A stretch of DNA of 34,438 bases from a bacterium. Its GTDB lineage: Bacteria > Desulfobacterota > GWC2-55-46. Of this stretch, positions 1 to 20,575 are shown one piece after another. The translations under genes and the position numbers were made by a program. The notes below the pieces were generated by a model, which saw nothing but the letters and a program-made list of their open reading frames with translations, was not told where the DNA came from and did no database searches. Within the stretch, counting starts at the first letter, position 1. Each line of letters begins with the position of its first letter. The stretch is from contig SCQA01000094.1 of NCBI GenBank assembly GCA_004298725.1, positions 1-34,438 on the forward strand, in the 5' to 3' direction.

Positions 1-118
1 CAACATTTCGCTTACGTTGATATTTATTGCCCATACCGCGTTTTTTACCATACATAGCCGATCGCCCGCCGGAAAAACAAACCAGCCTAATGCCGAAAAA
101 TACCGCGCCTGAAAAACC

Positions 119-153
119 TTGACAGAGCCGCTTTTTTTGTATACTGTATACAA
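119..153 (+). promoter_or_regulatory. TTGACA box followed by a perfect 17-bp palindrome (operator-like) containing TATACT
   Basis: TTGACA 119-124. TTGTATAC-T-GTATACAA at 137-153 is a perfect palindrome. The spacing from TTGACA to TATACT is only 15 nt, so promoter function is uncertain. Confidence 0.3.
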
Positions 154-372
154 TGAAGGCGTGGCACGCGCTTAGTCAAAAAAAAGCTGTATAAACGCTT
201 GTTACCGGCGGTATAATGCGCGTTATCGCTAAAATATCTTTAAAACAATCATTAAGCTGAAGAACTCTCAGCTATAAAAGTTCAAGCCAATGCAAAAAAA
301 GCAGTAGCAAATTTTTAACGTCTGCAAATCAACGCAGTACATAAATTTCAGGGGTAGACTTTACAAACAACC

Positions 373-520
373 TTAAGGGTGTCTCTAAAAATTAGAAATT
401 TTTTCCGAGGTCGAGGCGGGGCGAAATAAAAAGCGGAGCATATATGTGAATATGTGAGCATTTTTATTTCGTCCTAACAAAGAGATCGGAAAAAAGGGCG
501 ATTTTTAGAGGTACCCTTAA
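373..520. mobile_element. MITE-like palindromic element, copy 1 (140-bp core 377-516 flanked by TTAA/TTAA)
   Basis: Terminal inverted repeats GGGTGTCTCTAAAAAT / ATTTTTAGAGGTACCC. The interior is also arm-to-arm complementary (TTTTTTCCGAGGTC / GAGATCGGAAAAAA; CGAAATAAAAAGC / GCATTTTTATTTCG). About 10 mismatches to copy 2 over about 140 nt. It ends 30 nt before the mdh ATG. Confidence 0.75.
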
Positions 521-547
521 AAACAAAATGACTTCAGGAGAGCATAA

Positions 548-2405: not shown

Positions 2406-2965
2406 TGACCGAACCTATACGCATAACGCCTCCTTTTACCTCCGCTGACATTGACAAACTTAAAGCCGGAGACAATGTTTTGATAACCGGCGTGATATAC
2501 ACGGCAAGGGACGCGGCGCACAAAAGGCTTATTGCGTTACTTGATAAAGGCGAAAAACTTCCGTTTGACTTAAAAGGACAAGTCATATATTACGTCGGGC
2601 CGACTCCGGCAAAACCCGGGCAGGTTATAGGCTCGGCCGGGCCGACTACAAGCGGCAGAATGGACGCTTACACCCCACGCCTTCTTGAGCTTGGGTTAAA
2701 AGCGACGCTCGGCAAGGGACAACGCTCCGAAGAGGTGCTTGACGCCATGAAGAAGCATAAGGCCGTTTACATGGCCGCTGTCGGCGGAGCCGCGGCGCTT
2801 ATTTCAAAGTGCATAAAAAAAGCTGAAATTATCGCATACGACGACCTCGGCGCCGAGGCCATAAGGCGGCTCGAGGTCGTTGACTTTCCCGCGATAGTCG
2901 TAAACGACTCAATGGGCGGAGACCTCTTTACGCAAGGCACTCAAAAATACAGGAAGGCCGTCTGA
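2405..2965 (+). CDS. fumB: Class I fumarate hydratase, beta / C-terminal-domain subunit
   Basis: 186 aa counted from ATG 2405; the ORF-track start at 2330 lies inside fumA and is rejected. Motifs GVIYTARDAAHKRL and YYVGPTPAKPG..GSAGPTTSGRMD. The stop TGA 2963-2965 overlaps the hdrC ATG at 2965. Confidence 0.85.
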   Translation: MTEPIRITPPFTSADIDKLKAGDNVLITGVIYTARDAAHKRLIALLDKGEKLPFDLKGQVIYYVGPTPAKPGQVIGSAGPTTSGRMDAYTPRLLELGLKATLGKGQRSEEVLDAMKKHKAVYMAAVGGAAALISKCIKKAEIIAYDDLGAEAIRRLEVVDFPAIVVNDSMGGDLFTQGTQKYRKAV

Positions 2966-3372
2966 TGAAGATAAAGCTCGCGCAGTCAGCCATTGAAGGC
3001 AGTGAGATAAACCAGCTTGAACGCGTAACAGGCGAAGAGCTTAAACGGTGCTACCAGTGCGGCAAATGCTCGGCAGGTTGCCCAGTGTCATTCGCAATGG
3101 ATATACCGCCGACACAGATAATGCGCTTTCTTCAACTTGGCATGTTTGACGACGTAATGAAGGCGAACTCTTTGTGGGTCTGCGTCGGGTGTTTGCAATG
3201 CTACGCGCGTTGCCCGCAGGGTTGCAGTGTGGCGAACGTGCTTGAGGGCCTCCGCCAGATGGTGCTTAGAAAAGGCGAGGATCACTACGGCGTTAAGGAA
3301 ATATCCGCGCGCTTTCTTGAAAAAGCGCCCCAACAGGCTATAGTTTGCGGTTTCAGAAAGTTCGTAAGCTGA
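2965..3372 (+). CDS. hdrC: Heterodisulfide reductase subunit C-like (2x[4Fe-4S])
   Basis: 135 aa with two ferredoxin-type motifs, CYQCGKCSAGCP and CVGCLQCYARCP. The start codon overlaps the fumB stop, indicating translational coupling. Confidence 0.8.
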   Translation: MKIKLAQSAIEGSEINQLERVTGEELKRCYQCGKCSAGCPVSFAMDIPPTQIMRFLQLGMFDDVMKANSLWVCVGCLQCYARCPQGCSVANVLEGLRQMVLRKGEDHYGVKEISARFLEKAPQQAIVCGFRKFVS

Positions 3373-3393
3373 ATTTTGGGTATATTGCGCTAC

Positions 3394-3463
3394 GTGATTA
3401 GTAGCCGGCGTTTAGTTGGTTGAACGTTTCTCTGCTAATCACCATACACTAACCACTAATCAC
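3394..3463. repeat. Degenerate tandem heptamer tract (forward then reverse-complement units)
   Basis: GTGATTA GTAGCCG GCGTTTA GTTGGTT GAACGTT TCTCTGC TAATCAC CATACAC TAACCAC TAATCAC. TAATCAC is the reverse complement of GTGATTA. The tract abuts MITE copy 2. Confidence 0.6.
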
Positions 3464-3611
3464 TTTAGGGTGTCTCTAAAAATTAGAAATTTTTTCCGAG
3501 GTCGAGGCAGGATGAAATAAAAAGCGGAACATATATGCGAATATGTGAGCATTTTTATTTCGTCCTAACAAAGAGATCGGGAAAAAGAGCAATTTATAGA
3601 GGTGCCCTTTA
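3464..3611. mobile_element. MITE-like palindromic element, copy 2 (core 3468-3607 flanked by TTTA/TTTA)
   Basis: Same length and orientation as copy 1. It is flanked by a direct (not inverted) 4-bp TTTA on both sides, consistent with a target-site duplication. It is inserted between hdrC and hdrB and ends 9 nt before the hdrB ATG. Confidence 0.75.
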
Positions 3612-3616
3612 TTAAA

Positions 3617-4486
3617 ATGAAGATACCCTACTACCCAGGCTGTACTTTGAATACCGTTGCCAAGGACTTCGACTTGTCCGCAAAGACATCTGCCCTTGCC
3701 ATGGGCTTTGAACTTGCCGAGCTACCGCAGTGGAACTGTTGCGGCGCGACATTTCCGCTTACGCCGGATAATATCATCGCTCTTACGGCTCCGGCAAAGG
3801 TTTTGTCAAACGCAAGGCTCGCCGGCGACACGCTGACCACGCTCTGTTCTGTCTGCTACAACGTATTGAAACGCACAAACAAAGTAATTAGAGACGACAA
3901 AGAGCGCCGCTCAACCATAAACGGTTTTATAGAGGCCGACTATGACGGAAGCCTTAATATAATACACTTCCTTGAAATATTGAGGGACAGAATAGGCTTT
4001 GAAAAGGTAAAAAAGGCGGTTAAAAAACCGCTTAACGGCTTAAAAGCCGCTTCATACTACGGTTGCATGTTACTCCGGCCTTTTGAGGACATGGGCATTG
4101 ACGACTCCGAAGCGCCAATGATAATGGAAAACCTTGTTACAGCGCTTGGCGCCGAGCCGGTAACATTTCCAAATAAAATAGAATGTTGCGGCGCGCACCT
4201 TGCCATGAACAACGAAGATATCGTCACAAGACTTTCCGGCAACGTAATGACGTCGGCAGTCAACAGCGGGGCCGAAATAATAGTAACCACTTGCCCGCTT
4301 TGCCATTATAACCTTGAAAAGAGTCAACCTAAGGTGGCGGAGTCAACCCCGGGCTACAAGAACGTGCCTATCGTATATTTTACCCAGCTTCTCGGCCTTG
4401 CGCTCGGTCAGAATGAAGCAGGCCTCGGCTTTGACAAGAACCAATGGGACGCACGGCCTTTACTGAAGAAAAAGGGGTTGTTATAG
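3617..4486 (+). CDS. hdrB: Heterodisulfide reductase subunit B-like (two CCG domains)
   Basis: 289 aa from ATG 3617 (MKIPYYPGC...). An alternative GTG at 3602 lies inside the MITE copy. Two Cys-rich CCG units: YYPGC...NCCGA...CSVC and YYGC...CCGAH...CPLCH. Confidence 0.86.
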   Translation: MKIPYYPGCTLNTVAKDFDLSAKTSALAMGFELAELPQWNCCGATFPLTPDNIIALTAPAKVLSNARLAGDTLTTLCSVCYNVLKRTNKVIRDDKERRSTINGFIEADYDGSLNIIHFLEILRDRIGFEKVKKAVKKPLNGLKAASYYGCMLLRPFEDMGIDDSEAPMIMENLVTALGAEPVTFPNKIECCGAHLAMNNEDIVTRLSGNVMTSAVNSGAEIIVTTCPLCHYNLEKSQPKVAESTPGYKNVPIVYFTQLLGLALGQNEAGLGFDKNQWDARPLLKKKGLL

Positions 4487-4545
4487 GCTGGTTTTATGGG
4501 CGATACACGCGGCAATTGATTGAAGAGCAATAGAAGAGGATTTTT

Positions 4546-6519
4546 ATGCCAAGAATAGGCGTTTTCGTTTGTCAGTGCGGAAATAACATAGCCGCCACGG
4601 TTGACACAAAAAAAGTCGCCGAGGAGATGAAAAACCTCCCGGGCGTCGTATTTGCCTGCGACTACAAGTTCATGTGCTCGTCACCCGGGCAGGATATGCT
4701 TAAAAACGCCATCAAGGACAACAAACTTGACGGCGTAATCGTATCGGCCTGCTCTCCGCACATGCACGAAAAGACCTTCAGAAAAGCGTGCGAATCAGCG
4801 GGCCTTAACCCTTATCAGTGCGAAATAACCAACATACGCGAGCAATGCTCGTGGGTGCATCACGACAAAACCAAAAAAGCCGGCACGCTTAAAAGCGCCG
4901 ACCTTACGAGAATGACGATAGAGCGGCTTAAAAAAAATAAGCCGCTGGCCAAAATAAAGATACCCGTTAAAAAGAAGGCCATTGTAATAGGCGGCGGCAT
5001 AGCAGGCATACAGGCGGCGCTTGACATAGCCGAAGGCGGGGTTGACGTAATTATCGTCGAAAAAGAGCCGTCAATCGGCGGCAACATGGCGCGGCTTTCC
5101 GAAACCTTCCCAACCATGGACTGCTCGCAGTGCATCCTCACGCCGAAGATGGTCGAGGCCGAGCTTCACGAAAGAATAACGCTTTATACGTATTCTGAAA
5201 TTGAAAAGGTTGACGGCTACATCGGCAACTTCACGGTGCAGATACGGCGTAAATCAAAATACGTTGACGAAGAGCGTTGCACCGGTTGCGGAGAGTGCAT
5301 TGAAAAGTGTCCGTTCAAGGTGGATAGCGCCTTTGAACTTGGCATGACCAAGAGGAAGGTCATTTACACGCCCTTTCCACAGTCCGTGCCGAACGTGCCG
5401 GTAATAGACGCGCCCAACTGCACCAAAATTCAAAAAGACAAATGCGGCGTGTGCGCCATAGTCTGCGGGCCGAAGTGCATCGACTTCAAGATGGAAGATA
5501 AAATAGTCACCGTGGAAGCGGGCGCAATTATAGTGGCAACCGGCTACCAGCTTATGCCCAACGAACGCTTCGGCGAATACGGCTACGGACGGATAAAAGA
5601 CGTTATAAGCGGTATGCAGTTTGAAAGGCTTGCGTCAGCCTCCGGCCCCACTGGCGGAGAAATAAAAAGGCCGTCCGACGGCAAGGTGCCAAGAAGCGTA
5701 GTCTTTATCCAGTGCGCCGGTTCAAGGGACGAGAAAAAAGGCGTATCATACTGCTCAAAGGTATGTTGTATGTACACGGCAAAGCACACCATGCTTTACA
5801 GCCACAAGGTGCACCACGGCCAGTCATATGTTTTCTACATGGACATCCGGGCCGGCGGAAAACGCTACGAAGAATTCGTAAGGCGCGCCATAGAGCACGA
5901 CAACGCGATGTATTTAAGAGGACGCGTGTCGCGCGTATATGAACGCGACGGCAAGGTACTTGTGCAGGGCGCGGACACCCTTTCAGGCAATCAGGTGGAA
6001 ATAGAAGCCGACATGGTCGTACTTGCAACCGCCATAATTTCAAGAGACGGCGCGGACACGCTTGCGCAGAAGCTCAGCATAGGCTACGACAAATACAAGT
6101 TTTACAACGAGTACCACCCCAAGCTTAAACCGGTCGAGACCGTCACCGCGGGCATATTCCTTGCCGGAACATGCATGGGGCCCATGGACATACCGGACTC
6201 GGTTGCTCAGGGTAGCGCCGCGGCAAGCAAGGTGCTTTCTCTTTTTTCAGCGGATGAAATGACAAGAGAACCGATAACGGCCATTGTAAACAAGGTTACC
6301 TGCAACTCGTGCTGGGACTGTTTAACCGCCTGCCCGTATTCTGCCATTGAAAGAGACGCGGTAAAAAACAGGCAGGGCGTAATAACAAAATGGCTTGCGA
6401 AGGTGAACGAAGGCGTGTGCCAGGGGTGCGGCGTGTGCGTTGCCGCTTGCAGAAGCAAGTCAATTGACCTGCGCGGATACACGGATGAGCAGGTTTTTGC
6501 GGCGATAAACGCGTTTTAA
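4546..6519 (+). CDS. hdrA: Heterodisulfide reductase subunit A-like (FAD plus multiple [4Fe-4S])
   Basis: 657 aa. N-terminal IGVFVCQCGNNIA, FAD fold KKAIVIGGGIAGIQAALDIAEGG, and ferredoxin motifs CTGCGECIEKCP, CGVCAIVCGP, CNSCWDCLTACP and CQGCGVCVAAC. Confidence 0.92.
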   Translation: MPRIGVFVCQCGNNIAATVDTKKVAEEMKNLPGVVFACDYKFMCSSPGQDMLKNAIKDNKLDGVIVSACSPHMHEKTFRKACESAGLNPYQCEITNIREQCSWVHHDKTKKAGTLKSADLTRMTIERLKKNKPLAKIKIPVKKKAIVIGGGIAGIQAALDIAEGGVDVIIVEKEPSIGGNMARLSETFPTMDCSQCILTPKMVEAELHERITLYTYSEIEKVDGYIGNFTVQIRRKSKYVDEERCTGCGECIEKCPFKVDSAFELGMTKRKVIYTPFPQSVPNVPVIDAPNCTKIQKDKCGVCAIVCGPKCIDFKMEDKIVTVEAGAIIVATGYQLMPNERFGEYGYGRIKDVISGMQFERLASASGPTGGEIKRPSDGKVPRSVVFIQCAGSRDEKKGVSYCSKVCCMYTAKHTMLYSHKVHHGQSYVFYMDIRAGGKRYEEFVRRAIEHDNAMYLRGRVSRVYERDGKVLVQGADTLSGNQVEIEADMVVLATAIISRDGADTLAQKLSIGYDKYKFYNEYHPKLKPVETVTAGIFLAGTCMGPMDIPDSVAQGSAAASKVLSLFSADEMTREPITAIVNKVTCNSCWDCLTACPYSAIERDAVKNRQGVITKWLAKVNEGVCQGCGVCVAACRSKSIDLRGYTDEQVFAAINAF

Positions 6520-6578
6520 CGCCACGGCCTCATTACAGCTTGTCAGACTGCTGATATTATAATCAAGGATTTATCATA

Positions 6579-7040
6579 ATGACGGAACATACTGAGCAAA
6601 CAGAATCCTGCGGCTTCGAGCCTAAAATAATGGCCTTTGTGTGCAACTGGTGCACCTATGCCGGCGCCGACCTTGCCGGAACGAGCAGGATGGAATACAG
6701 GCCGAACGTGCGGATAATTAAGCTCCCCTGCACCGGCAGGATAGACCCGCTATTTATCATCAAGGCCTTTGAAAACGGCGCGGACGGAGTGCTCGTCTCC
6801 GGTTGCCACCCCGGAGACTGCCACTACACCACCGGCAATTACCACGCAAGGCGCCGCTGGATAGGCTTTAAAAACCTTATGGAGTTTACGGGCATTGACA
6901 TGAGAAGGCTTCATTTTTCATGGGTATCCGCGTCAGAGGCCATCAAGTGGGTTGACCTGATAAACGGCATAACCGATGAAATAAAGAAAATAGGGCCGTT
7001 CATGGAATACAAGGGGCTGAAGGAAAAAGCCAGCCTGTAA
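6579..7040 (+). CDS. flxD: MvhD/FlxD-type delta subunit ([2Fe-2S] electron-transfer protein)
   Basis: 153 aa. MAFVCNWCTYAGADLAG...IKLPCTGRIDP...LVSGCHPGDCHY is the classic MvhD/FlpD signature. It sits directly after hdrA, as in hdrCBA-flxDCBA clusters. Confidence 0.88.
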   Translation: MTEHTEQTESCGFEPKIMAFVCNWCTYAGADLAGTSRMEYRPNVRIIKLPCTGRIDPLFIIKAFENGADGVLVSGCHPGDCHYTTGNYHARRRWIGFKNLMEFTGIDMRRLHFSWVSASEAIKWVDLINGITDEIKKIGPFMEYKGLKEKASL

Positions 7041-7071
7041 CTAAGCCGCGCAAACAAAGAGGGAGCGTCGC

Positions 7072-7284
7072 ATGGCAAATGAAATATCCGTTAACGCGGT
7101 AATAATTGAAAACGAAGACGGCACTTACAGGGCGTTATGCCCGGACCTCTCCGTGGAATCAGTCGGTAAAAATTCCGACGACGCTTTAAGAAACCTGAAA
7201 GACGCCGTAACAAAACACGTAAAAGAAAAAGGCGCGTCACTTAATTCGGTAAAGTGCATGAAGCTTAGGGTGCAGGTAAACTGA
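7072..7284 (+). CDS. Small HicB-like / UPF0150-fold protein
   Basis: 70 aa. The pattern EDGTYRALCPDL...GKNSDDALRNLKDAVTKHV resembles the N-terminal HicB antitoxin-like fold. GAGGGAG lies upstream of the ATG. No hicA partner is present. The stop overlaps the next start (TGATG). Confidence 0.45.
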   Translation: MANEISVNAVIIENEDGTYRALCPDLSVESVGKNSDDALRNLKDAVTKHVKEKGASLNSVKCMKLRVQVN

Positions 7285-7715
7285 TGAATACTTCAATCGC
7301 CGAGTGCGTAAAATTCACTAACGAAAACCCGCGTTGCTTCCTGGCCACAGTTGAGGGCGACCAGCCGAGGGTGCGCGGCATGCACCTGATGTTTTCTAAT
7401 GAACAGGGTTTTTATTTTACAACAGGCAACTTTAAAGGCATGTACGGCCAACTTCAGAAAAACCCCAAGACCGAAGTCTGCTTCTTTTCGCCTAAAGAAA
7501 TGCGCTCGATGCGAATTGCGGGCGAAGTCGAGTTCATAACGGACATGAAAGAAAAAGAGGAAATATTCAAAAAGACCCAGTGGCTTAAAAACATCATCGG
7601 CACGCACGACAACGCCATGTGGACGCCTTTCAGAATACAAAGGGGCGTAGCTTACTTCTGGACAATGGCCGCTAACCTTGAAAAGCCAAACTACATCGGT
7701 TTTGATTTTAAATAA
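7284..7715 (+). CDS. Pyridoxamine 5'-phosphate oxidase-like FMN-binding split-barrel protein
   Basis: 143 aa. LATVEGDQPRVRGMHL...FYFTTGNFKGMYGQLQKNPKTEVCFF...MRIAGEVEF is typical of the PNPOx-like family. Translationally coupled to the preceding small ORF. Confidence 0.55.
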   Translation: MNTSIAECVKFTNENPRCFLATVEGDQPRVRGMHLMFSNEQGFYFTTGNFKGMYGQLQKNPKTEVCFFSPKEMRSMRIAGEVEFITDMKEKEEIFKKTQWLKNIIGTHDNAMWTPFRIQRGVAYFWTMAANLEKPNYIGFDFK

Positions 7716-7725
7716 AAAACAGGCA

Positions 7726-8619
7726 ATGGAAAACATTTTAAGAAAAAAAGCAAAAGAGCTTCTTGAAACCGGCGCCGTAAAAGTGGTAATCGGCTACGGC
7801 TGGAACCGCTCAAAAACAAGGACGACTCCGGTGTTCATAACAAAACCGGAAGACGCGGACAGGCTCGTCTTCAATCCGCTCTGCGTCAACAACCTGTCCG
7901 TCTATCTTACGAGGAAGTTTAAAGACATACAAGCCCTCGGCAAGCCCGCGATAATCGCCAAGGGTTGCGACATAAAAAACATCGTGGTGCTTATAACCGA
8001 AGCGCAATTACAGCGCGAGGACGTTTTTATAATCGGCATGGTCTGCGAAGGCACGGTATATAAACAAGAACTATGGAAAGGCGAGCTTTTGCCGCAAATC
8101 ATGCCAACGAAGTGCCACAACTGCGGAGTAAGGAACCCGCACGTGGCGGACGTTATAATCGGCGAAAAGTCAACCTTTGTGCCGCCGGAAAAACCAACCG
8201 GCATGGTCTTTGACAAGATAAAAGACATTGACTCCAAAGACCAGTCAGCGCGATGGGGCTTCTGGATAAATGAATTTTCACGGTGCGTAAAGTGCTACGC
8301 GTGCAGGCAGGTCTGCTCGCTTTGCTACTGCGAGAGGTGCATAGCGGAAAAGAACATGCCGCAGTGGATAGAGACAAGCGCGCACCCGAGAGGCAATCTA
8401 TCGTGGAACCTCACAAGAGCCATGCACCTTGTGGGCAGATGCACGTTTTGCGGCGAGTGCGAAAGGGCGTGCCCTGTAAATATACCGCTGAACCTAATAA
8501 ATCAGAAGATGATACTTGTTGTGAAAGACGCTTTTAATTTTGAGTCCGGCTACGACGAAAAAACGCATCCGCCGATGATAGTCTTCAGCCCGGATGACAA
8601 AGACAACTTCATAAAGTAA
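7726..8619 (+). CDS. flxC: Iron-sulfur protein, FlxC-like (F420-hydrogenase-beta / AsrA-related 4Fe-4S protein)
   Basis: 297 aa from ATG 7726; the ORF-track start at 7678 overlaps the previous gene. Cys clusters CHNCGVRNP, CVKCYACRQVCSLCYCERC and CTFCGECERACP. The position after flxD matches the flxDCBA order. Confidence 0.6.
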   Translation: MENILRKKAKELLETGAVKVVIGYGWNRSKTRTTPVFITKPEDADRLVFNPLCVNNLSVYLTRKFKDIQALGKPAIIAKGCDIKNIVVLITEAQLQREDVFIIGMVCEGTVYKQELWKGELLPQIMPTKCHNCGVRNPHVADVIIGEKSTFVPPEKPTGMVFDKIKDIDSKDQSARWGFWINEFSRCVKCYACRQVCSLCYCERCIAEKNMPQWIETSAHPRGNLSWNLTRAMHLVGRCTFCGECERACPVNIPLNLINQKMILVVKDAFNFESGYDEKTHPPMIVFSPDDKDNFIK

Positions 8620-8631
8620 GTTAAAAAAAGA

Positions 8632-8666
8632 CGGTTATCAATTACCGGTTATCGGTAATTGATACG
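8632..8666. repeat. Heptamer tract forming a perfect 12-bp hairpin
   Basis: CGGTTAT CAATTAC CGGTTAT CGGTAAT TGATACG. Positions 8636-8664 read TATCAATTACCG-GTTAT-CGGTAATTGATA. Located between flxC-like and flxB-like. Confidence 0.65.
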
Positions 8667-8700
8667 CCGCCTTTTACGAAATGGAACAAAGGCGCGAGAG

Positions 8701-9726
8701 ATGGCGAAGACAGTTGAAAAACTTTTAAAAAAAGAAAACCTTGATAAACTCATAACCTCTGTCAAAGCTGACGGAGGCCGCTGGATTGCGCCTGTTACGG
8801 ACGCGCGCCAAGTCGTCTTCAAGGCCGTGACAAAGCATGAAGATATGGCCTCTGACTACATACTCGCAAGAAACTCTTATAAAGAGGTTCTCTTTCCGCA
8901 AACGGAAGTCATTGCCGAATACTCGGTTTCAAGAGAAGGCTCCGAGATGCACGGCGTTGAATTAACCCCGGCTGAGACTGTCGTTTTCGGGGCACGCCCC
9001 TGCGAGGCCGCAAGCCTTAAATCGCTCCGTTCGGTATTTACATGGGACTTTATTGACGAATTCTACACAAAGCGCGAGGAAAAATTAATCATCATAACCG
9101 TTGCCTGCACAAAGGCGGATGAGGCGTGCTTTTGCACCACCGTAAACATCTCGCCGGAATCAACCGAAGGCTCGGATATTTACCTTAAAGAAACCGTCAG
9201 CGGCGATTACCTTGCTCACGGCGCAACTGAAAAAGGCAAAGCATTTATGGCAAAACACGGCAATACCTTTGAAAACGCGCCAAAAGACGCGCAAACAAAA
9301 AAACTCGTCATGCCGGAAGAAATAAATGGCATTGACCTTGATAAAATTTCAGAGCGCCTTAAAAAGACCGGCCATTACGAAGACCATGTCTGGGCGGAGC
9401 TTACGAGAAAGTGCATCGGTTGCGGGGCATGCACATACGTCTGCCCGACGTGCCACTGCTTCGACATAACCGACGAAGGCACGGCCATTGAAGGCGAGCG
9501 CAGAAAGAACTGGGACTCCTGCCAGTTCGACGCCTTTACCCTGCACGCAAGCGGCCACAACCCGCGCGACACGCAGTTTAAAAGGTGGCGTAACAGGTTC
9601 ATGTGCAAAATGCACATTTACCCTGAAAAGTTTAACTCAACAGGTTGCGTCGGTTGCGGCAGATGTGTACGCGTCTGTCCGGTAAGGCTTGACATAACCG
9701 AAGTGATGGAGGCGCTGTCGAAATAA
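8701..9726 (+). CDS. flxB: Iron-sulfur protein, FlxB-like (AsrA / sulfhydrogenase-beta-like)
   Basis: 341 aa from ATG 8701; the TTG at 8659 lies inside a 12-bp hairpin. Motifs CIGCGACTYVCPTCHCFD and CVGCGRCVRVCP, plus ARPCEA and ACFC. Confidence 0.65.
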   Translation: MAKTVEKLLKKENLDKLITSVKADGGRWIAPVTDARQVVFKAVTKHEDMASDYILARNSYKEVLFPQTEVIAEYSVSREGSEMHGVELTPAETVVFGARPCEAASLKSLRSVFTWDFIDEFYTKREEKLIIITVACTKADEACFCTTVNISPESTEGSDIYLKETVSGDYLAHGATEKGKAFMAKHGNTFENAPKDAQTKKLVMPEEINGIDLDKISERLKKTGHYEDHVWAELTRKCIGCGACTYVCPTCHCFDITDEGTAIEGERRKNWDSCQFDAFTLHASGHNPRDTQFKRWRNRFMCKMHIYPEKFNSTGCVGCGRCVRVCPVRLDITEVMEALSK

Positions 9727-9731
9727 CCGTT

Positions 9732-10565
9732 ATGAATAATATTTATCTGCCTCAGCTTGTTACAATAGAAGATATCTACGACGAAGCACCGGACGTTAAA
9801 AGCTACCGCCTTGTGTTTAAGGACAAAGCCGTGCGCGAGGCTTTCGACTTCAAGGCAGGCCAATTCGGCCTGTACTCGGCCTTCGGCCTCGGAGAGTCGA
9901 CTTTTTGCATAGCGTCGTCGCCGACGCGCAAGGGCTATATTCAATGCACGTTCAGAAGAACAGGCCGCGTAACAGGCGGGCTTGACGAGCTTTCCATAGG
10001 CGGCACAATGGGTTTTCGCGGCCCTTACGGCAACTGGTTCCCATTGGACGAATGGAAGGGCAAGAACATTGTCTTTATCGCCGGAGGCATCGGCCTGCCG
10101 CCGGTACGCTCGGTCATATGGAACTGCCTTGACAGAAGGGAAGACTTCGGGAACATTACAATCGTTTACGGCGCAAAAACAGTTGCCGACCTCGTCTATA
10201 AAAACGAGCTTGAACACTGGGGCGGCAGGCCTGACGTAAAACTCATACAAACCGTTGACCCGGGCGGAGAGACGCCTGAGTGGAAGGGCAAAACAGGCTT
10301 CGTGCCGACGGTGCTTGAAGAGGCCGCGCCAAAAGCTGAAAATTCAATTGCCGTAACCTGCGGCCCTCCTATAATGATAAAATTCGTGCTTGCCACGCTC
10401 AAAAAACTCGGCTGGAACGACGAACAGGTCTACACAACGCTTGAAAACAAGATGAAGTGCGGCGTGGGCAAATGCGGCAGGTGCAACGTGGGCGACGTGT
10501 ATATATGCAAAGAAGGCCCGGTCTACACCGCCGCCGGAGTAAAAAAGATGTATAACGACTTTTAG
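9732..10565 (+). CDS. flxA: FAD/NAD(P)H-binding oxidoreductase with C-terminal [2Fe-2S], FlxA-like (PyrK/AsrB/HydG family)
   Basis: 277 aa. FNR-like fold (KAGQFGL, IAGGIGLPPVRS, TCGPPIM) and a C-terminal cluster CGVGKCGRCNVG...C. Confidence 0.72.
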   Translation: MNNIYLPQLVTIEDIYDEAPDVKSYRLVFKDKAVREAFDFKAGQFGLYSAFGLGESTFCIASSPTRKGYIQCTFRRTGRVTGGLDELSIGGTMGFRGPYGNWFPLDEWKGKNIVFIAGGIGLPPVRSVIWNCLDRREDFGNITIVYGAKTVADLVYKNELEHWGGRPDVKLIQTVDPGGETPEWKGKTGFVPTVLEEAAPKAENSIAVTCGPPIMIKFVLATLKKLGWNDEQVYTTLENKMKCGVGKCGRCNVGDVYICKEGPVYTAAGVKKMYNDF

Positions 10566-10575
10566 GAGCTTAACC

Positions 10576-11364
10576 ATGGCAGACGACAATAAAAAACAGA
10601 AACCGCTTGCGACCGGCGACAGGACAATTCCTCCCGCCGGAGCGAAGATGATTGCCATATACATAATGGGGCGGGAATACATGGTGCCGGAAACCCTCAC
10701 CATAATGAAAGCGATTGAATACGCGGGCTATCAGTACGTGCGCGGGTGCGGGTGCAGGGGCGGCATATGCGGCGCGTGCGGCACCTTCTACCGCTTTACC
10801 GGCGACTACAAATTGCGCTCCGGACTTGCCTGCCAGACGGTAGCCGAACCGGGCATGATAATAATGCAGTTGCCGTTCTTCCCCGCCAACAGGCCGGATT
10901 ACAAACTGGAAAACATGCAGGGAACCCCGCATGAAGAACTTAGAAAGCTCTACCCGGAGGTCTTCAAGTGCGTGGGTTGCGGCACATGCTCAAGAACCTG
11001 CCCCATGGACATAGACGTAATGGATTACATCGCCCTTATGAAACGCGGCGATTTAAAAGGCGCGGCAATAAAGAGCTTTGACTGCGTCATGTGCGGGCTT
11101 TGCGCCTCGCGCTGTCCGGCGCAGATTTCGCAGTTCACGGCGGCCATGTTCGTAAGAAGGGTTTACGGAAAGCATATTCTGCCTAAAGCAGAGCACTTGA
11201 AAAAACGCGTTGAAGAAATAAAAAGCGGCAAGTACGAAAAACTGCTTAAAGAGCTTGAGGGGATGAAGCAGGAAGACGTCAAGAAGCTATACGTGGAACG
11301 CGAGAGAGAACCTGACCTTGCCGAGCCGGGCAAATGGATGCCGAAGGACACGTCTAAGCTGTAA
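10576..11364 (+). CDS. Divergent succinate dehydrogenase/fumarate reductase iron-sulfur subunit-like protein
   Basis: 262 aa. SdhB-type [2Fe-2S] motif CRGGICGAC...LAC, then two complete CxxCxxCxxxCP motifs (CVGCGTCSRTCP, CVMCGLCASRCP), followed by a charged Lys/Glu-rich tail. AGGAG SD. The ATG is 10 nt after the flxA stop. Confidence 0.7.
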   Translation: MADDNKKQKPLATGDRTIPPAGAKMIAIYIMGREYMVPETLTIMKAIEYAGYQYVRGCGCRGGICGACGTFYRFTGDYKLRSGLACQTVAEPGMIIMQLPFFPANRPDYKLENMQGTPHEELRKLYPEVFKCVGCGTCSRTCPMDIDVMDYIALMKRGDLKGAAIKSFDCVMCGLCASRCPAQISQFTAAMFVRRVYGKHILPKAEHLKKRVEEIKSGKYEKLLKELEGMKQEDVKKLYVEREREPDLAEPGKWMPKDTSKL

Positions 11365-11387
11365 GAGCCAAGCCACAGGAGAATACG

Positions 11388-13037
11388 ATGAGCGGATATA
11401 CGCCGGAACTTAAAGAACTTATAAAAAAGGTGGAAGCCACGAGGCCCGCGAGGGTCGAGAAGGCAAGGCGCGGCGAGCACTTTCCAGCCCTCACCATGGA
11501 CGAGAGGAAGAAGTGGCTTGACAACTACCACCCCGACTTCAAGGAAGAAGGCAGGCGCGCCGTTGCCGTAGGGCCGAATATCGGCACAATAATGCCGGAA
11601 GAAGTAGCCTTCGCGCTTGAATCAACAAGCAGGCTCGACACAAAAAAAATAAACCTTTCAAAAGCCGACTATGAAACGGATTTGCTCGTTATAGGCGCCG
11701 GCGGCGCAGGCACCGCCGCGGCGCTCGCGGCGGCGGATAAAGGCCTTAAAGTAATAATTTCCAATAAGCTCCGCCACGGCGACTCGAATACCGTTATGGC
11801 CGAAGGCGGCATACAGGCCGCCGATCAGGAGAGCGACTCGCCTTACTACCATTATCTTGACGTAATCGGCGGAGGGCATTTTTCCAACAGGCCGGAGCTT
11901 GTAGCCGCGATGGCAAACGACGCGCCGCTTATAATCCACTGGCTTGAAGACCTCGGCATGATGTTCGACAAACACGCCGACGGCAGAATGGTAGTAAGGC
12001 ACGGCGGCGGCACGAGCAGAAAAAGAATGCATTCCGCCGGAGACATGACCGGCGCTGAAATAATGCGCGTTCTAAGGGACGAAGCGAAAAACCGCGCCGA
12101 AAGCATCAAGGTGCTTGAATTCTCCCCTGCCGTTGAGCTTTTACTTGACGAAAAAGGCGCCGCTTGCGGAGCGGTGCTTTATAACCTTGAAACCAAAGAA
12201 TATTACATAGTGCGCTCAAAGGCCGTTGTCATAGCCACGGGCGGCTTTGGCAGGCTCCACATACAGGGCTTTCCCACGACCAACCACTACGGCGCCACCG
12301 CCGACGGTATCGTTATAGCTTACCGCGCCGGAGCCGCGCTTGAAGACATCGAATCAACGCAATACCACCCGACCGGCGCGATATACCCGGAACAGAACGT
12401 CGGGCTTCTCATAACCGAAAAAGTCAGAGGCCTCGGCGCCCAGCTTTTAAATATTGACGGCGAGCAGTTCTGCTTTCCGCTTGAACCGAGGGACGTCGAA
12501 TCCGCCTGCATCATCAGGGAATGCACGGACATCAGCAAAGGCGTCATCACGCCGACCGGGCGCTTTGGCGTATGGCTTGACTCGCCCATGATAGACCTTC
12601 TGCACGGCGAAGGCACAATAAAAAAAGAACTGCCGGCCAAATACATTCAGTTCAAACGCTACCACATTGACATAAGCAAAGAACCTATGCTCCTCTACCC
12701 GACGTTGCACTACCAGAACGGCGGCATAAAAATAGACGCAAACGGCAGATCGGCCATTGACGGCCTTTACGCCGCAGGGGAAGTAACCGGAGGGGTTCAC
12801 GGCAGAAACCGCCTCATGGGCAACTCGCTTCTTGACATACTTGTTTTCGGAAGAAGGGCGGGCTTGAACGCCGCCGAGGCCGCCAAAACAAAGTCAAACA
12901 CCGGCAAACTAAGCCTTGCTCACGTGGATAAATTTTCCGCCGAGCTGAAAAAAGCAGGAGTTAAAAACCCGTCAGTCGGGCCGATACTTCTGCCTGACTA
13001 CGCCCCTGAACACGTAAAGACAAGACAGTGGGGTTAA
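11388..13037 (+). CDS. Divergent fumarate reductase/succinate dehydrogenase-family flavoprotein (non-covalent-FAD type)
   Basis: 549 aa. LLVIGAGGAGTAAA FAD fold at about residue 100. Family motifs are retained: QYHPTG, TEKVRGLGA, PTLHYQNGG and HGRNRLMGNSL. The flavinylation position reads DSNTVMAEGG (Asn where SdhA/FrdA have His). Confidence 0.75.
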   Translation: MSGYTPELKELIKKVEATRPARVEKARRGEHFPALTMDERKKWLDNYHPDFKEEGRRAVAVGPNIGTIMPEEVAFALESTSRLDTKKINLSKADYETDLLVIGAGGAGTAAALAAADKGLKVIISNKLRHGDSNTVMAEGGIQAADQESDSPYYHYLDVIGGGHFSNRPELVAAMANDAPLIIHWLEDLGMMFDKHADGRMVVRHGGGTSRKRMHSAGDMTGAEIMRVLRDEAKNRAESIKVLEFSPAVELLLDEKGAACGAVLYNLETKEYYIVRSKAVVIATGGFGRLHIQGFPTTNHYGATADGIVIAYRAGAALEDIESTQYHPTGAIYPEQNVGLLITEKVRGLGAQLLNIDGEQFCFPLEPRDVESACIIRECTDISKGVITPTGRFGVWLDSPMIDLLHGEGTIKKELPAKYIQFKRYHIDISKEPMLLYPTLHYQNGGIKIDANGRSAIDGLYAAGEVTGGVHGRNRLMGNSLLDILVFGRRAGLNAAEAAKTKSNTGKLSLAHVDKFSAELKKAGVKNPSVGPILLPDYAPEHVKTRQWG

Positions 13038-13138: not shown

Positions 13139-14314
13139 ATGAACATACACGAGTATCAGGCAAAGAGCATTCTTGCCAAATTCGGCGTACCGGTGCCGAA
13201 GAGCAAAATAGCGTTTACGCCGGACGAAGCCGAAGAAAACTCAAAGGAGTTTTTAAGCGGCGAAGGAAGCGTCTGCGTTGTAAAGGCGCAGATACACGCC
13301 GGTGGCAGAGGCAAGGCAGGCGGCGTAAAACTCGCCAAATCAAGGCAGCAGGTGCGCGAGATTGCCTCGGAACTTCTCGGTAAAATCCTCGTAACTCACC
13401 AGACAGGCCCCGTCGGAAAAGAAGTCAAGAAAATACTCATCGAAGAAGGCTGTGCCATAGAAAAAGAGTTCTACATGAGCCTCGTGGTGGACAGGTCAAG
13501 CCACAAGGTGGCGCTGATGGCGTCGCGCGAAGGCGGCGTGGAAATAGAAGAAGTAGCGGCGCGCTCTCCTGAAAAAATATTAAAAGAATTCATAGACCCT
13601 GCTACCGGACTTATTCCCTTTCAAGGGCGCAAAATCGCCTTTGCCCTCGGCCTTGACAAATCGGTAATAAACAAAGCCGTATCATTCATGACTAAACTTT
13701 ACGACGCGTTTGTCGCCTCGGACTGCGCCATGCTTGAAATAAACCCTCTTGTGCTTACTAAGTCCGGCGACCTAATCGCGCTTGACGCCAAGCTCTCGTT
13801 TGACGACAACGCCCTTTTCCGCCACAAGGACATTGAAGGCATGAGAGACCTTGACGAGGAAGACCCGAAAGAAATTGAAGCTTCGCGCTACAGCCTGAAT
13901 TATGTTTCGCTTGACGGCTCCATCGGGTGCATGGTCAACGGCGCCGGCCTTGCCATGGCGACAATGGACATAATACAGCTCTGCGGCGGAAGCCCGGCTA
14001 ACTTTCTTGACGTAGGCGGCGGCGCAACCAAAGAGCAGGTAACGGCGGCGTTCAAGATACTCGTCTCAGACCCAAGGGTTAAAACAATTCTTGTCAATAT
14101 CTTCGGCGGAATAATGCGTTGCGACATCATAGCCGAGGGCATCATAGCCGCGGCAAAAGAAGTCGGCCTGAAGGTGCCGCTGGTGGTTAGGCTTCAGGGC
14201 ACTAACGTTGACAAGGGCAGAGAGCTTCTTGCCACAAGCGGGCTTAACATCATAACCGCCGAAAAGATGGACGAAGCCGCCCAAAAAGCCGTCAACGCGG
14301 CTAAAAAGGCATAG
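13139..14314 (+). CDS. sucC: Succinyl-CoA synthetase (ADP-forming) beta subunit
   Basis: 391 aa. [20 protein letters not shown], an ATP-grasp region, and [15 protein letters not shown]. Confidence 0.95.
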
Positions 14315-14327
14315 GGGGCTACATACC

Positions 14328-15203
14328 ATGAGCATACTCGTAAATAAAAACACCAGAGTTATCTGTCAGGGCATAACCGGCGAGCAGGGCACGTTCCACT
14401 CAAAACAAATGGTAGCCTACGGCACGAAGATGGTCGGCGGAGTAACGCCGGGCAAGGGCGGCTCGGATGTTGACGGCATACCGGTATTTAACACCGTTGA
14501 CGAGGCAATAAGAAAAACCGGAGCGAACGCTTCCGTAATATACGTGCCGCCGCCGTTCGCGGCTGACGCCATAATGGAAGCGGTTGACGCCGGCATTGCC
14601 CTTGTAATCTGCATAACAGAGGGAATACCGGTTATAGACATGGTCAAGGTAAGAAGGTTCATGGACGGCAAACCGTCAAGGCTTGTCGGCCCGAACTGCC
14701 CGGGCGTCATCACGCCGGATGAATGTAAAATAGGCATAATGCCCGGCCATATACACAAGAAAGGCAACGTGGGCGTGGTATCCAGAAGCGGCACCCTCAC
14801 CTACGAGGCGGTTGACCAGCTTACAAGGCTCGGCCTTGGGCAATCAACCTGCGTCGGCATAGGCGGAGACCCGGTAAACGGCACAAACTTCATTGACGTG
14901 CTTGAACTCTTTCAAAAAGACCCGGATACAAACGCCATTGTAATGATAGGAGAAATAGGCGGAAGCGCCGAGGAAGACGCCGCAGAGTTCATAAAGAAGA
15001 ACGTAACAAAACCGGTTGTCGGACATATAGCCGGCGTTGCCGCGCCAAAGGGCAAAAGAATGGGCCACGCCGGCGCGATAATATCCGGCGGCAAAGGCAC
15101 GGCTGAAGAAAAGATGGAGGCTATGTCCGCCGCTGGCATTAAGGTAACGAAAAGCACCGCTGACATCGGCAAAACAATGCTCCAAGCGCTTGCCAAAAAA
15201 TAA
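14328..15203 (+). CDS. sucD: Succinyl-CoA synthetase alpha subunit
   Basis: 291 aa. [23 protein letters not shown], and the phospho-His region [15 protein letters not shown]. Confidence 0.95.
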
Positions 15204-15249: not shown

Positions 15250-15494
15250 TCTATCAAGTTGCGCGGGTTACTCTCTGGTCAGTTCGCCAAAGGCGAACAA
15301 TACAAAAGGCGAAGTCCTTACCAGTTGACAAAGTCAACAAAAGTTCACGACCCATCCTGTTCGGATGGGTGCCCCGAAGGCGCCCTGAAGTAAGGCACGA
15401 GACATATTTTTCTCTACGCGAAAGTGACGAGGACAACACAGCAGTTGGGACTTTTTCAACAACCTATAAGCCAATGACGAATACGGAGGGTTAC
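15250..15494 (+). promoter_or_regulatory. Hairpin-rich 5' leader of korD (candidate riboswitch or attenuator; no known family recognised)
   Basis: Hairpins: GTTCGCC-AAA-GGCGAAC (15282-15298), GTTGAC-AAA-GTCAAC (15324-15338), CCCATCC-TGTTC-GGATGGG (15351-15369), the mutually exclusive GGGTGCC-CCGAA-GGCGCCC (15367-15385), and C-GAAA-G (15419-15424). A possible closing helix is CCTTAC (15316-21) / GTAAGG (15390-95). Confidence 0.4.
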
Positions 15495-15698
15495 ATGGGA
15501 GAAGCCGCTTTAAAACTGCCAAACATTCGGATAAACGAAAAACTCTGCAAGGGTTGCAGTATATGCGTTGACTTTTGCCCGACCAACGTCCTTGAAATCA
15601 AAGGCACAGTAGTCGCGGTTAAAGACCTTGCCGCTTGCACGCGGTGCCAGCTTTGCGACCTCCGGTGCCCGGACTTTGCAATATCGGTTATAGATTAA
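15495..15698 (+). CDS. korD: 2-oxoglutarate:ferredoxin oxidoreductase delta subunit (2x[4Fe-4S] ferredoxin)
   Basis: 67 aa from ATG 15495, with GGAGGG 4 nt upstream. CKGCSICVDFCP and CTRCQLCDLRCP. The ORF-track start at 15369 runs through the structured leader and is rejected. Confidence 0.8.
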   Translation: MGEAALKLPNIRINEKLCKGCSICVDFCPTNVLEIKGTVVAVKDLAACTRCQLCDLRCPDFAISVID

Positions 15699-15789
15699 CG
15701 GTTATCAGTTGCCGGTTATCCGTGAACGGATGTAGTTTATACGTTTTACGACTGCACACTAACCGCCGATACCATTTTAAACTACACCA
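15685..15789. repeat. Degenerate tandem heptamer tract starting inside the 3' end of korD
   Basis: CGGTTAT AGATTAA CGGTTAT CAGTTGC CGGTTAT CCGTGAA CGGATGT AGTTTAT ACGTTTT ACGACTG CACACTA ACCGCCG ATACCAT TTTAAAC TACACCA. It fills most of the 134-nt korD-korA spacer. Confidence 0.6.
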
Positions 15790-15832
15790 CAGATTGACTT
15801 AAGAGCGGTCTGTTAGGGGAGGTTTTAAAAAC

Positions 15833-16969: not shown

Positions 16970-16996
16970 AACAACAGCTATCACGGAGGCTTGGAA

Positions 16997-17857
16997 ATGT
17001 CAGAAGGCACCGTTGCCAAAAAACAAAAGCTTAGCGTACCGTTTGACTACGACAAATACCTAAGGCCCAAAAAACTTCCGCACATCTGGTGCCCGGGTTG
17101 CGGCCACGGCATTGTCCTTAAAGCGCTTCTTCGCGCAATAGAGGCAAGCGGACTGAATAAAGACGACATCTGCATGGTCTCCGGCATTGGTTGCTCAAGC
17201 AGAACACCCGGCTACGTTGACTTCAACACCATGCACTCGCTCCACGGCAGGGCATTCGCCTTCGCGACAGGAATTAAATTCGCTAAGCCGAATATGAAGG
17301 TCATCGTCATAACCGGCGACGGAGACGCACTTGCCATCGGCGGCAACCACTTCATACACACGTGCAGAAGGAATATTGACCTGACGGTTCTCGTTTACAC
17401 AAACGCGATATACGGCATGACCGGCGGCCAATACTCGCCGACCACGCCGCTTGGCGACATAGCCACTACAAGCCGCTACGGAAACATCGAGCCGCCCTTC
17501 GACGCCTGCAAAATGGCCGAGGCCGCCGGAGCGTCGTTTGTGGCGCGCGGCACCGCCTACCACACGCTTGAGCTTGAAAAGACCATACTTGAAGCAATAA
17601 AGCACAAGGGAACTTCGGTTGTTGACATCATTGACGCATGCCCGACTTATTACGGCAGAATGAACAAATACAAGAGCGCGACTCACATGATGGAAGTAAT
17701 TGAAAAAGACGGCACGGTGTCAGTAAAACAGGCCGACAAACTGCCCCCTGAAAAACTTGAAGGCAAGCTCCTGCGCGGCGTTCTATACAAAACAGACAGA
17801 CCGGAATACTGCGAGCAATACGCCACACAGGTAATGGGAAAGGCAACCGGCAAATAA
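16997..17857 (+). CDS. korB: 2-oxoglutarate:ferredoxin oxidoreductase beta subunit (TPP-binding)
   Basis: 286 aa from ATG 16997, with GGAGG 7 nt upstream. WCPGCGHG cluster motif and TGDGDALAIGGNH TPP motif. Confidence 0.9.
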   Translation: MSEGTVAKKQKLSVPFDYDKYLRPKKLPHIWCPGCGHGIVLKALLRAIEASGLNKDDICMVSGIGCSSRTPGYVDFNTMHSLHGRAFAFATGIKFAKPNMKVIVITGDGDALAIGGNHFIHTCRRNIDLTVLVYTNAIYGMTGGQYSPTTPLGDIATTSRYGNIEPPFDACKMAEAAGASFVARGTAYHTLELEKTILEAIKHKGTSVVDIIDACPTYYGRMNKYKSATHMMEVIEKDGTVSVKQADKLPPEKLEGKLLRGVLYKTDRPEYCEQYATQVMGKATGK

Positions 17858-17922
17858 ACCGGTTTTAGCTCTAAGATTTTAGACAATATTTAAGCTATTT
17901 AAACGGAGGGCAAGTAAAAACA

Positions 17923-20498: not shown

Positions 20499-20500
20499 AC

Positions 20501-20551: not shown

Positions 20552-20575
20552 AGAATAAGACCTCTACATAAAACC

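Follow-up and report, generated by a model that had tools for sequence, protein, structure and literature searches.

The FlxABCD-HdrABC system of Desulfovibrio vulgaris, as far as it is described in a later account (Ramos et al., 2015, via PMC6315080), is encoded in the order hdrCBA-flxDCBA and linked to an alcohol dehydrogenase, with DsrC as the proposed high-potential acceptor. The same gene order and the domain content of all seven subunits are found in a window of 34,438 nucleotides (nt), which is the whole stretch of DNA analyzed here (contig SCQA01000094.1 of assembly GCA_004298725.1, from a bacterium of the Desulfobacterota lineage GWC2-55-46); all coordinates below refer to this window. 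Unlike in the D. vulgaris system, however, no adh or dsrC-like gene was recognized among the open reading frames (ORFs) of the window, two small genes interrupt flxD-flxC, and a pair of genes is added that encodes an iron-sulfur (FeS) protein and a flavoprotein resembling the subunits of fumarate reductase (Frd) and thiol:fumarate reductase (Tfr). We propose, with about even confidence, that this Hdr-Flx-Frd block encodes one soluble NAD(P)H-dependent, ferredoxin-reducing fumarate reductase built on the Flx-Hdr bifurcating scaffold.

A preliminary description of the window did not recognize such an assembly as a characterized system, and this stands in so far as no biochemical characterization was found; the same bifurcation hypothesis, however, was already published in 2019. 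Rubin-Blum et al. (2019; PMC6315080, Text S1 Note 3) reported the gene order frdB-frdA-hdrC-hdrB-korDABC-hdrA-flxDCBA in tubeworm symbionts and Thioflavicoccus mobilis, and proposed a novel complex bifurcating electrons from NADH to 2-oxoglutarate:ferredoxin oxidoreductase (OGOR) and fumarate reductase. Operon-like co-expression of the homologous Endoriftia cluster, intergenic regions included, was later reported by Mitchell et al. (2024; PMC11636981). Compared by description only, this cluster of the reductive tricarboxylic acid (rTCA) cycle has the same parts as the window, namely a putative frdB/frdA (tfrAB-like) pair, hdrCBA, flxDCBA and korDABC, but the symbionts (Ca. Endoriftia and the Escarpia symbiont) carry them in the order frdBA-hdrCB-korDABC-hdrA-flxDCBA-aclBA-idh, whereas the window has fumAB-hdrCBA-flxD-x-x-flxCBA-frdBA-sucCD-korDABC (x, small gene) and no acl gene. 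The hosts differ as well, being Gammaproteobacteria for the symbiont cluster and Desulfobacterota-type metagenome-assembled genomes (MAGs) for the window type, and a gammaproteobacterial relative that we found (P0123) is 48% identical and lies in a NuoF-linked context.

The layout of the window, again by description only, is also that of the 'succinate operon' of Pseudoclostridium thermosuccinogenes, which, in the summary given in PMC7282089 (citing the preprint of Koendjbiharie and van Kranenburg, 2019), comprises fumarase, seven Flx-Hdr and two Frd genes that are co-regulated, and for which that summary proposes coupling of fumarate reduction to ferredoxin reduction. This organism is a fermentative Firmicute with succinate as its end product, whereas the window genes lie in a TCA/OGOR context. 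The hypothesis has also been invoked for Bipolaricaulia (bioRxiv 10.1101/2023.11.26.568696), and the idea was reviewed in 2026 in a survey according to which the step that reduces fumarate is still unresolved in many rTCA organisms (PMC13147460). As in the published Hdr-Flx-Tfr/Frd(-OGOR) clusters, the window has co-directional hdrABC and flxABCD genes and an anchor-less pair beside TCA genes and korDABC; the locus is a new lineage and gene order of an already proposed, uncharacterized candidate system rather than a new concept, and its useful additions are an HdrBC-Frd core, modular partners, a fusion, a signature of non-covalent FAD and a co-resident canonical SdhABE.

Several other enzymes resemble parts of the block. 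MvhADG-HdrABC of methanogens (PDB 5ODC) shares with it a full-length homologous HdrA, an HdrB with both CCG motifs, an HdrC with two [4Fe-4S] clusters and an MvhD-like connector. Its donor is a [NiFe] hydrogenase and its acceptor CoM-S-S-CoB, whereas the window has Flx (NAD(P)H) as its donor module and, as the proposed acceptor, fumarate, reached via the FeS/flavoprotein pair. In Methanothermobacter, TfrB is a fusion of an SdhB-type FeS part and an HdrB-type CCG part; in the window these parts lie on separate genes, in addition to HdrC, and three separate window proteins match the TfrB profile piecewise (E = 1e-7 to 1e-9; cut-off 385 bits). The window flavoprotein lacks the C-terminal part of TfrA and has an N-terminal extension, and the CoM and CoB thiols used by TfrAB would not be expected in bacteria. 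FrdABCDE of Hydrogenobacter thermophilus (Miura et al., 2008, via PMC13147460) is, in that account, soluble, multi-subunit, NADH-driven and irreversible and serves the rTCA cycle, like the proposed window enzyme, but by description it has other accessory subunits, and the account reports neither HdrA/Flx nor bifurcation. In the type-E SdhABE(F) enzymes, such as 'FrdABEF' of Syntrophobacter fumaroxidans (PMC5947623), an HdrB-like CCG subunit replaces the haem membrane anchor; type-E SdhA and SdhB sit separately in the window (18774–21544) and pass curated cut-offs, whereas the Frd-like pair does not.

Gene content and proposed electron path

An unbroken plus-strand gene run extends from mdh to korC (mdh-fumAB-hdrCBA-flxD-x-x-flxCBA-FeS-flavoprotein-sucCD-korDABC), and the gene identities and positions assigned in the preliminary description, including the order hdrC-B-A-flxD-C-B-A and the two small genes that separate flxD from flxC, were all recovered with the ORF listing, Pfam and NCBIfam. 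The hdrC-like gene (2965–3372), which starts on the stop codon of fumB (TGATG at 2963–2967, as read in the sequence), encodes a protein with two [4Fe-4S] motifs, whose eight cluster cysteines show no variation across 47 sequences; its best NCBIfam match is CoB_CoM_SS_C (1.3e-19), below cut-off. The hdrB-like product (ORF 3602–4486; PF02754) has two complete CCG motifs, with ten cysteines invariant in 54 sequences, and scores best with an SdhE-anchor model (2.1e-54) and the HdrB model (2.8e-51), both below cut-off; it is 32% identical to the window's own SdhE. hdrA (4546–6519) matches the HdrA2 model at 5.8e-236 and is followed by a flxD/mvhD-like gene for a [2Fe-2S] connector (6579–7040; PF02662, 8.3e-52).

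After the two small genes, the flxC-like gene (ORF 7678–8619) encodes an FeS protein with a weak Fer4 match and a weakly FpoF-like N-terminus, and its position is conserved in 46 loci. The flxB-like FeS protein (ORF 8659–9726; Fer4_22, 2.5e-32) is sulfhydrogenase-beta- and AsrA-like and matches 9nez_B at 1.3e-40. The flxA-like product (9732–10565; PRK08345, 3.7e-73), which is HydG- and AsrB-like, has an NAD(P)-binding (NAD_binding_1) and a [2Fe-2S] (DHODB_Fe-S_bind) domain, and is presumed to be the entry point for electrons from NAD(P)H. Starts internal to three of these ORFs appear more likely than their first codons: for hdrB, the opening GTG at 3602 falls inside a repeat element (see below), and therefore ATG 3617 is the likelier start, and for flxC and flxB, ATG 7726 and ATG 8701 are preferred over the opening TTG codons at 7678 and 8659.

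The Frd-like pair follows flxA after exactly 10 nt, with a gene for an FrdB/TfrB-N-like FeS subunit of 262 amino acids (aa) at 10576–11364 and, exactly 23 nt further on, a gene for an FrdA/TfrA-like flavoprotein of 549 aa at 11388–13037 (PF00890, FAD_binding_2, 4e-81), and both junction lengths agree with those given before. A crude hydropathy scan gave zero membrane segments in the Hdr, Flx and Frd-like subunits, so that the block encodes no membrane anchor, in line with the earlier description of the Frd pair as anchor-less. The TCA context of the block is likewise as described before. Upstream lie the malate dehydrogenase gene mdh (548–1477; TIGR01763, 462.7 bits against a cut-off of 351.85; Pfam Ldh_1_N and Ldh_1_C) and the class I fumarase genes fumA (alpha, 1569–2405; PF05681, 9.6e-119) and fumB (beta, 2330–2965; PF05683, 3.5e-64). 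Downstream are sucCD for the beta and alpha subunits of succinyl-CoA synthetase (13139–15203; PRK00696, 593.8 bits against a cut-off of 370, and Pfam) and korDABC for a four-subunit 2-oxoacid:ferredoxin oxidoreductase (15369–18468; korA, PRK08659, 574.7 bits against 411). The best specific matches of korDABC are 2-oxoglutarate synthase subunits, with scores below cut-off, and its substrate is probably 2-oxoglutarate. mdh is the first gene of the run, no ORF having been found upstream of it in window positions 1–547 (six-frame translation of 1–375).

In methanogen Hdr, it is HdrA that bears the bifurcating FAD. The HdrA of the window aligns over residues 2–654 with residues 4–646 of 5odc_A (E = 9.6e-195), with all cysteine motifs aligned; its FAD domain, both ferredoxin domains (inserted and C-terminal) and the complete set of FeS motifs are there, so that every part of a bifurcating HdrA is present. 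In the proposed enzyme, FlxA would oxidize NAD(P)H, the electrons would pass through FlxB, FlxC and FlxD to the FAD of HdrA, and HdrA would split each electron pair. The high-potential electron would travel via HdrC, HdrB and the 262-aa FeS subunit to the non-covalent FAD of the 549-aa flavoprotein and on to fumarate, while the low-potential electron would pass through the ferredoxin domains of HdrA to ferredoxin (Fd), or straight to the OGOR whose genes lie downstream. Overall, the enzyme would catalyze 2 NAD(P)H + fumarate + Fd(ox) → 2 NAD(P)+ + succinate + Fd(red). Textbook potentials are −320 mV for NADH, +30 mV for fumarate and about −450 mV for Fd, from which the forward reaction yields roughly −40 kJ/mol and the reverse is unfavorable. 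The reductive direction, from oxaloacetate via malate, fumarate, succinate and succinyl-CoA to 2-oxoglutarate, would be the one served, and is proposed because the surrounding genes spell out those steps. The sequences show the genes present, the cofactor motifs, the active-site residues and the conserved linkage, while for this scheme we infer complex formation, the electron path, bifurcation, the use of NADH or NADPH and the direction.

The HdrB subunit also bears on a different kind of coupling, in which Flx-HdrABC would reduce a disulfide (DsrC-like or a low-molecular-weight thiol) that a thiol:fumarate reductase would then re-oxidize, without one continuous wire. The intact and invariant CCG motifs of HdrB would suit such chemistry, TfrA is the best family match of the flavoprotein, and a variant of this model has been put forward in PMC6315080 (Text S1) and PMC11636981. 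However, the block has a single HdrBC and an FeS subunit without CCG, so that formation and consumption of the thiol would fall to a single site; the window lacks a recognizable dsrC-like gene among its ORFs, as mentioned above; and the equivalog cut-offs of both TfrA and TfrB are missed. We consider thiol coupling unlikely. Since a thiol shuttle needs two sites, the direct wire of the proposed bifurcating reductase would be the simpler arrangement.

If the enzyme bifurcates, fumarate would be added to the few high-potential acceptors known to power flavin-based reduction of ferredoxin. Such an enzyme would also account for the way in which anaerobes gain electrons of very low potential for the reductive carboxylation of succinyl-CoA without drawing on the membrane potential, and running the rTCA cycle would cost less energy.

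The Frd-like pair and the probable direction of the reaction

The motifs of the FeS subunit are arranged as in SdhB, with one [2Fe-2S] motif before two CxxCxxCxxxCP motifs, that is, one [2Fe-2S] and two [4Fe-4S] motifs, and the 12 cluster cysteines of the subunit are invariant in 75 sequences. The second cysteine motif contains four Cys, which predicts a [4Fe-4S] rather than a [3Fe-4S] cluster. The alignment of the subunit with the canonical SdhB of the window is weak (23% identity, E = 1e-5), with all three motifs aligned, and it reaches no curated cut-off (TIGR00384, 34.6 bits against 88). Neither a domain scan nor the alignment of conserved cysteines revealed a CCG domain.

Among NCBIfam models, TfrA matches the flavoprotein best (1.3e-101; 340.9 bits, cut-off 718; profile positions 5–410 of 546), the complex II flavoprotein model TIGR01812 gives 292.9 bits against 567.3, and scores close to that of TfrA are obtained with Sdh/Frd and L-aspartate oxidase models; no curated family cut-off in NCBIfam is reached. 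The protein is about 33% identical to the canonical SdhA of the window. It lacks the C-terminal domain (no PF02910 match), and the alignment stops about 70 residues past the NRLG motif. At the other end there is an N-terminal extension of about 95 aa, which relatives with 42–57% identity cover from about residue 32. A mis-called start as the origin of this extension was ruled out by its 65% conservation across 77 relatives. An AlphaFold2 model of the flavoprotein from a 21-sequence alignment was poor (mean pLDDT 56.7).

Residues H327, T343, E344, R347, R368, H441 and R475 of the flavoprotein are invariant in all 78 sequences compared. Mapped by motif, this set corresponds to H232, T244, E245, R287, H355 and R390 of E. 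coli FrdA, and on this mapping the flavoprotein appears to keep every fumarate-binding and catalytic residue, in agreement with the original Frd-like assignment. The flavinylated His, however, is replaced by Asn134 (DSNTVMAEGG) in 78 of 78 sequences. Non-covalent FAD is a hallmark of fumarate-reducing enzymes that do not oxidize succinate. Judged by these motifs, the residue set and Asn134 together are the predicted signature of a fumarate-reducing, not a succinate-oxidizing, enzyme.

The weak family scores raise the question of whether the flavoprotein might act on another substrate, such as L-aspartate or another enoate or dicarboxylate, its place in the operon then being incidental. The almost equal scores of L-aspartate oxidase models and structures and of Frd/Sdh, the failure to reach any curated family cut-off and the atypical domain architecture would all be compatible with this. 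Yet the flavoprotein is always paired, and once fused, with an SdhB-type FeS subunit, which NadB lacks; fumarase is encoded directly upstream in three separate lineages, and succinyl-CoA synthetase directly downstream in 41 loci. We therefore give very little credence to a substrate other than fumarate.

Beyond korC, after a spacer of 305 nt, the run continues with a second set of related genes that was absent from the preliminary description: sdhA (18774–20498; TIGR01812, 769.6 bits against the cut-off of 567.3), sdhB (20543–21544; passes TIGR00384) and sdhE for the HdrB-like type-E subunit (21498–22403), all on the plus strand. By these family matches, the set is assigned as a canonical type-E succinate:quinone/fumarate oxidoreductase, which means that the Frd-like pair has a second fumarate/succinate enzyme beside it at this locus. 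Its SdhA retains the covalent-FAD His (VRSHSVAAQGG), and the position of sdhABE after korC is conserved in relatives. Since the His-containing SdhABE adjoins the Hdr-Flx-Frd block, a separate enzyme for each direction of the succinate/fumarate step may be encoded here.

This arrangement also bears on the possibility that the Hdr-Flx-Frd enzyme runs backwards, with succinate and reduced ferredoxin from oxidative cleavage of 2-oxoglutarate being confurcated to NADH in the oxidative TCA cycle of an anaerobe. The close relatives of the window are Desulfobacterota MAGs, and the steps encoded by mdh, fum, sucCD and kor are reversible and are used oxidatively by some Desulfobacterota. Nevertheless, on textbook potentials the reverse reaction would be endergonic by roughly 40 kJ/mol under standard conditions, the covalent-FAD His required for succinate oxidation is Asn throughout the 78 sequences, and the His-bearing canonical SdhABE is available for that direction, which makes reverse operation highly improbable.

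Conserved linkage and alternative partners of the pair

In a genome scan that yielded 80 loci, to which all window proteins were mapped by tblastn, the linkage proposed in the preliminary description proved strongly conserved. Directly 5' of the FeS gene lies flxA (46 loci) or hdrB (21 loci), and in the remaining 13 the contig ends there; wherever sequence was available, nothing but flxA or hdrB occupies this position. In all 24 loci with enough upstream sequence, the nine genes hdrC-hdrB-hdrA-flxD-flxC-flxB-flxA-FeS-flavoprotein stand in the order of the window, five further loci cut by the 10-kb flank lying outside the 24 assessable ones, and sucCD directly follows the flavoprotein gene in 41 loci. 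A close clade with 73–81% flavoprotein identity, made up of groundwater and sediment 'Deltaproteobacteria/Thermodesulfobacteriota' MAGs, retains the entire order from mdh to korC and sdhABE. The nine-gene block also occurs in Nitrospirota MAGs (L052, L054, L058) and in L050, so that the Hdr-Flx-Frd linkage has a wide distribution among groundwater Desulfobacterota-type and Nitrospirota MAGs.

In the 21 loci with hdrB upstream (L053, L055, L057, L059–L061, L064–L069, L071–L075 and L077–L080), from Syntrophobacteraceae, Desulfobulbales, Desulfatiglandales and Desulfarculaceae, hdrC-hdrB-FeS-flavoprotein stands alone. Among the carriers of this four-gene core, Desulfoferrobacter suflitae (L057) and Desulforhabdus sp. 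TSK (L077) are cultured organisms. The core of L057 is preceded by a GAF/sigma-54 activator gene. Fumarase is encoded directly upstream in three lineages, namely in the window, in L050 and, as fumAB, in L055 of the four-gene type. In a neighbor-joining tree, the flavoproteins split cleanly into the two cluster types, and HdrC, HdrB, the FeS protein and the flavoprotein all show the same two-clade split, with between-type identities of 0.67 for the flavoprotein, 0.56 for the FeS protein, 0.40 for HdrB and 0.37 for HdrC. Because these 21 loci keep only hdrC-hdrB-FeS-flavoprotein, the arrangement points to an HdrBC+Frd core to which HdrA-FlxDCBA would have been added as an input module; judging from these sequences, the HdrBC-Frd core is older than the HdrA-Flx module or occurs independently of it.

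We had also considered whether the four-gene core might be the fumarate-induced 'FrdABEF' (Sfum_4092-4095) of S. fumaroxidans, but S. fumaroxidans was not among the best 120 matches of a homologue search with the Desulforhabdus protein, and the name 'ABEF' points to a type-E enzyme, a homologue of the sdhABE of the window; this link was therefore dropped.

Additional partners were found in a search of 1.84 billion representatives with gene-context look-ups. In a Logan contig (L083, 811–9771), the order is korDABC-hdrA-mvhD-hdrC-hdrB-FeS-flavoprotein, with 56% flavoprotein identity and no Flx genes in between, the contig stopping just past the flavoprotein gene. In MAGs of marine Gammaproteobacteria/Thiotrichales (L081 and L082, the latter at 9366–12891), genes for an FeS protein (212 aa) and a flavoprotein (545 aa, 48% identical to that of the window) are joined by a NuoF-like Complex1_51K gene, and this three-gene module is a candidate for a simple NADH:fumarate reductase. 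In the MAG GCA_054283745.1 from NCBI, the FeS protein and flavoprotein are fused in one protein of 727 aa (P0122; L084, 5250–7433). Since the pair is found with several input modules, it is probably a soluble catalytic head to which electrons can be fed by different modules, and its repeated grouping with HdrBC, HdrA and OGOR genes in changing orders speaks for a functional link. Chance clustering of Hdr-Flx and the Frd pair was ruled out by conservation across rearranged gene orders.

Several of these observations weigh against a bifurcating fumarate reductase. Literature searches gave no biochemical data on any member, a result that does not fully exclude a very recent characterization. The simpler partners of the Frd-like pair, HdrBC alone in the 21 loci and the NuoF-like module in marine Gammaproteobacteria, indicate that bifurcation is not intrinsic to the pair. 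The window contains neither a free ferredoxin gene nor an ATP-citrate lyase gene, and a full rTCA cycle is therefore unproven for the organism. The intact CCG motifs of HdrB leave room for thiol chemistry, sdhABE in the same gene run could supply fumarate reduction, and the tfrAB genes of Endoriftia are an exception to the common expression pattern of their cluster (PMC11636981).

The enzyme might, in particular, be a non-bifurcating NAD(P)H:fumarate reductase, in which Flx and Hdr would serve as a plain wire and the excess free energy would be lost, as in the five-subunit enzyme of Hydrogenobacter. Soluble NADH-dependent fumarate reductases are established (PMC13147460), and the Frd-like pair also occurs with a plain NuoF-like NADH module (L081 and L082) and with HdrBC in the absence of HdrA (the 21 four-gene loci). 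The full architecture of HdrA, with both ferredoxin domains and every cluster motif, would be hard to explain for a wire, however, and hdrA repeatedly adjoins korDABC. We regard a plain wire as rather unlikely, and continue to prefer the bifurcating, ferredoxin-reducing enzyme.

A more far-reaching version of the latter is that Hdr-Flx, the Frd pair and OGOR might form one supercomplex, in which NAD(P)H would be bifurcated onto fumarate and into OGOR without free ferredoxin, so that two reductive TCA steps (fumarate to succinate, and succinyl-CoA + CO2 to 2-oxoglutarate) would be driven by NADH alone. The N-extended, C-domain-less flavoprotein and its FeS partner would then be a separate modular class of soluble fumarate reductase, with HdrBC, HdrABC-Flx or NuoF-type inputs. 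This wider proposal is a doubtful one, to which we assign a low probability.

Repeats, transcription signals and neighboring genes

The long spacer between hdrC and hdrB (229 nt) does hold a miniature inverted-repeat transposable element (MITE), as had been noted before. This MITE-like element of 142 nt (3467–3608) contains an internal hairpin and is bounded by terminal inverted repeats of 18 nt (AGGGTGTCTCTAAAAATT...), and upstream of mdh (from 376 to about 510–517 in the window) there is another copy that is 93% identical. More copies occur at differing intergenic sites of the same operon in five related MAGs (L004 at 5932–6068, L006 at 9791–9923, L043 at 17541–17681, L031 at 9281–9375, and several sites in L022), and the gap between hdrC and hdrB in relatives ranges from −19 to +175 nt. 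An Rfam scan of the window, MITE included, gave no match, so that the MITE does not belong to any known RNA family.

The preliminary description had seen no promoter-like or terminator-like signal inside the block. In scans for consensus matches only, the part concerning terminators held, with terminator-like matches at chance level (31 found against 32.2 ± 6.2 in shuffles), whereas the part concerning promoters holds only roughly, a few consensus matches being present inside the block. The sole convincing terminator candidate from the scan is a plus-strand hairpin with T-run at 18582–18605, in the 305-nt spacer between korC and sdhA, which is a probable end of the transcription unit and may separate sdhABE from the unit upstream. 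In the spacer between flxC and flxB (8636–8664), there is a perfect palindrome with a 12-bp stem, TATCAATTACCG-GTTAT-CGGTAATTGATA, without a T-run on the plus strand, which could be an operator or an RNA hairpin.

The two small plus-strand genes between flxD and flxC vary in relatives. The first encodes 70 aa (orf70, 7072–7284), belongs to no family and is weakly HicB-like (HicB_lk_antitox, E = 0.012), and was found in 9 loci; the second encodes a PNPOx-like protein of 143 aa (7284–7715; PNPOx_N, 2.8e-14), and was found in 2. Downstream of the four-gene core in L057 there is also a PNPOx-like gene, an unrelated one.

Transposase remnants follow sdhE, namely an HTH_Tnp_1 fragment on the plus strand (22533–22808, E = 1.3e-5) and a weak IS200-like Y1 transposase ORF on the minus strand (22777–23319, E = 2e-4), and could be related to mobilization of the hairpin repeat. 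Further along the window, at 23639–28163 (minus strand), 28707–29990 (plus strand) and 32399–34114 (minus strand), the neighbors are ordinary genes, comprising a pstSCAB-phoU phosphate transport operon, a class-III aminotransferase gene, glyQ and recO.

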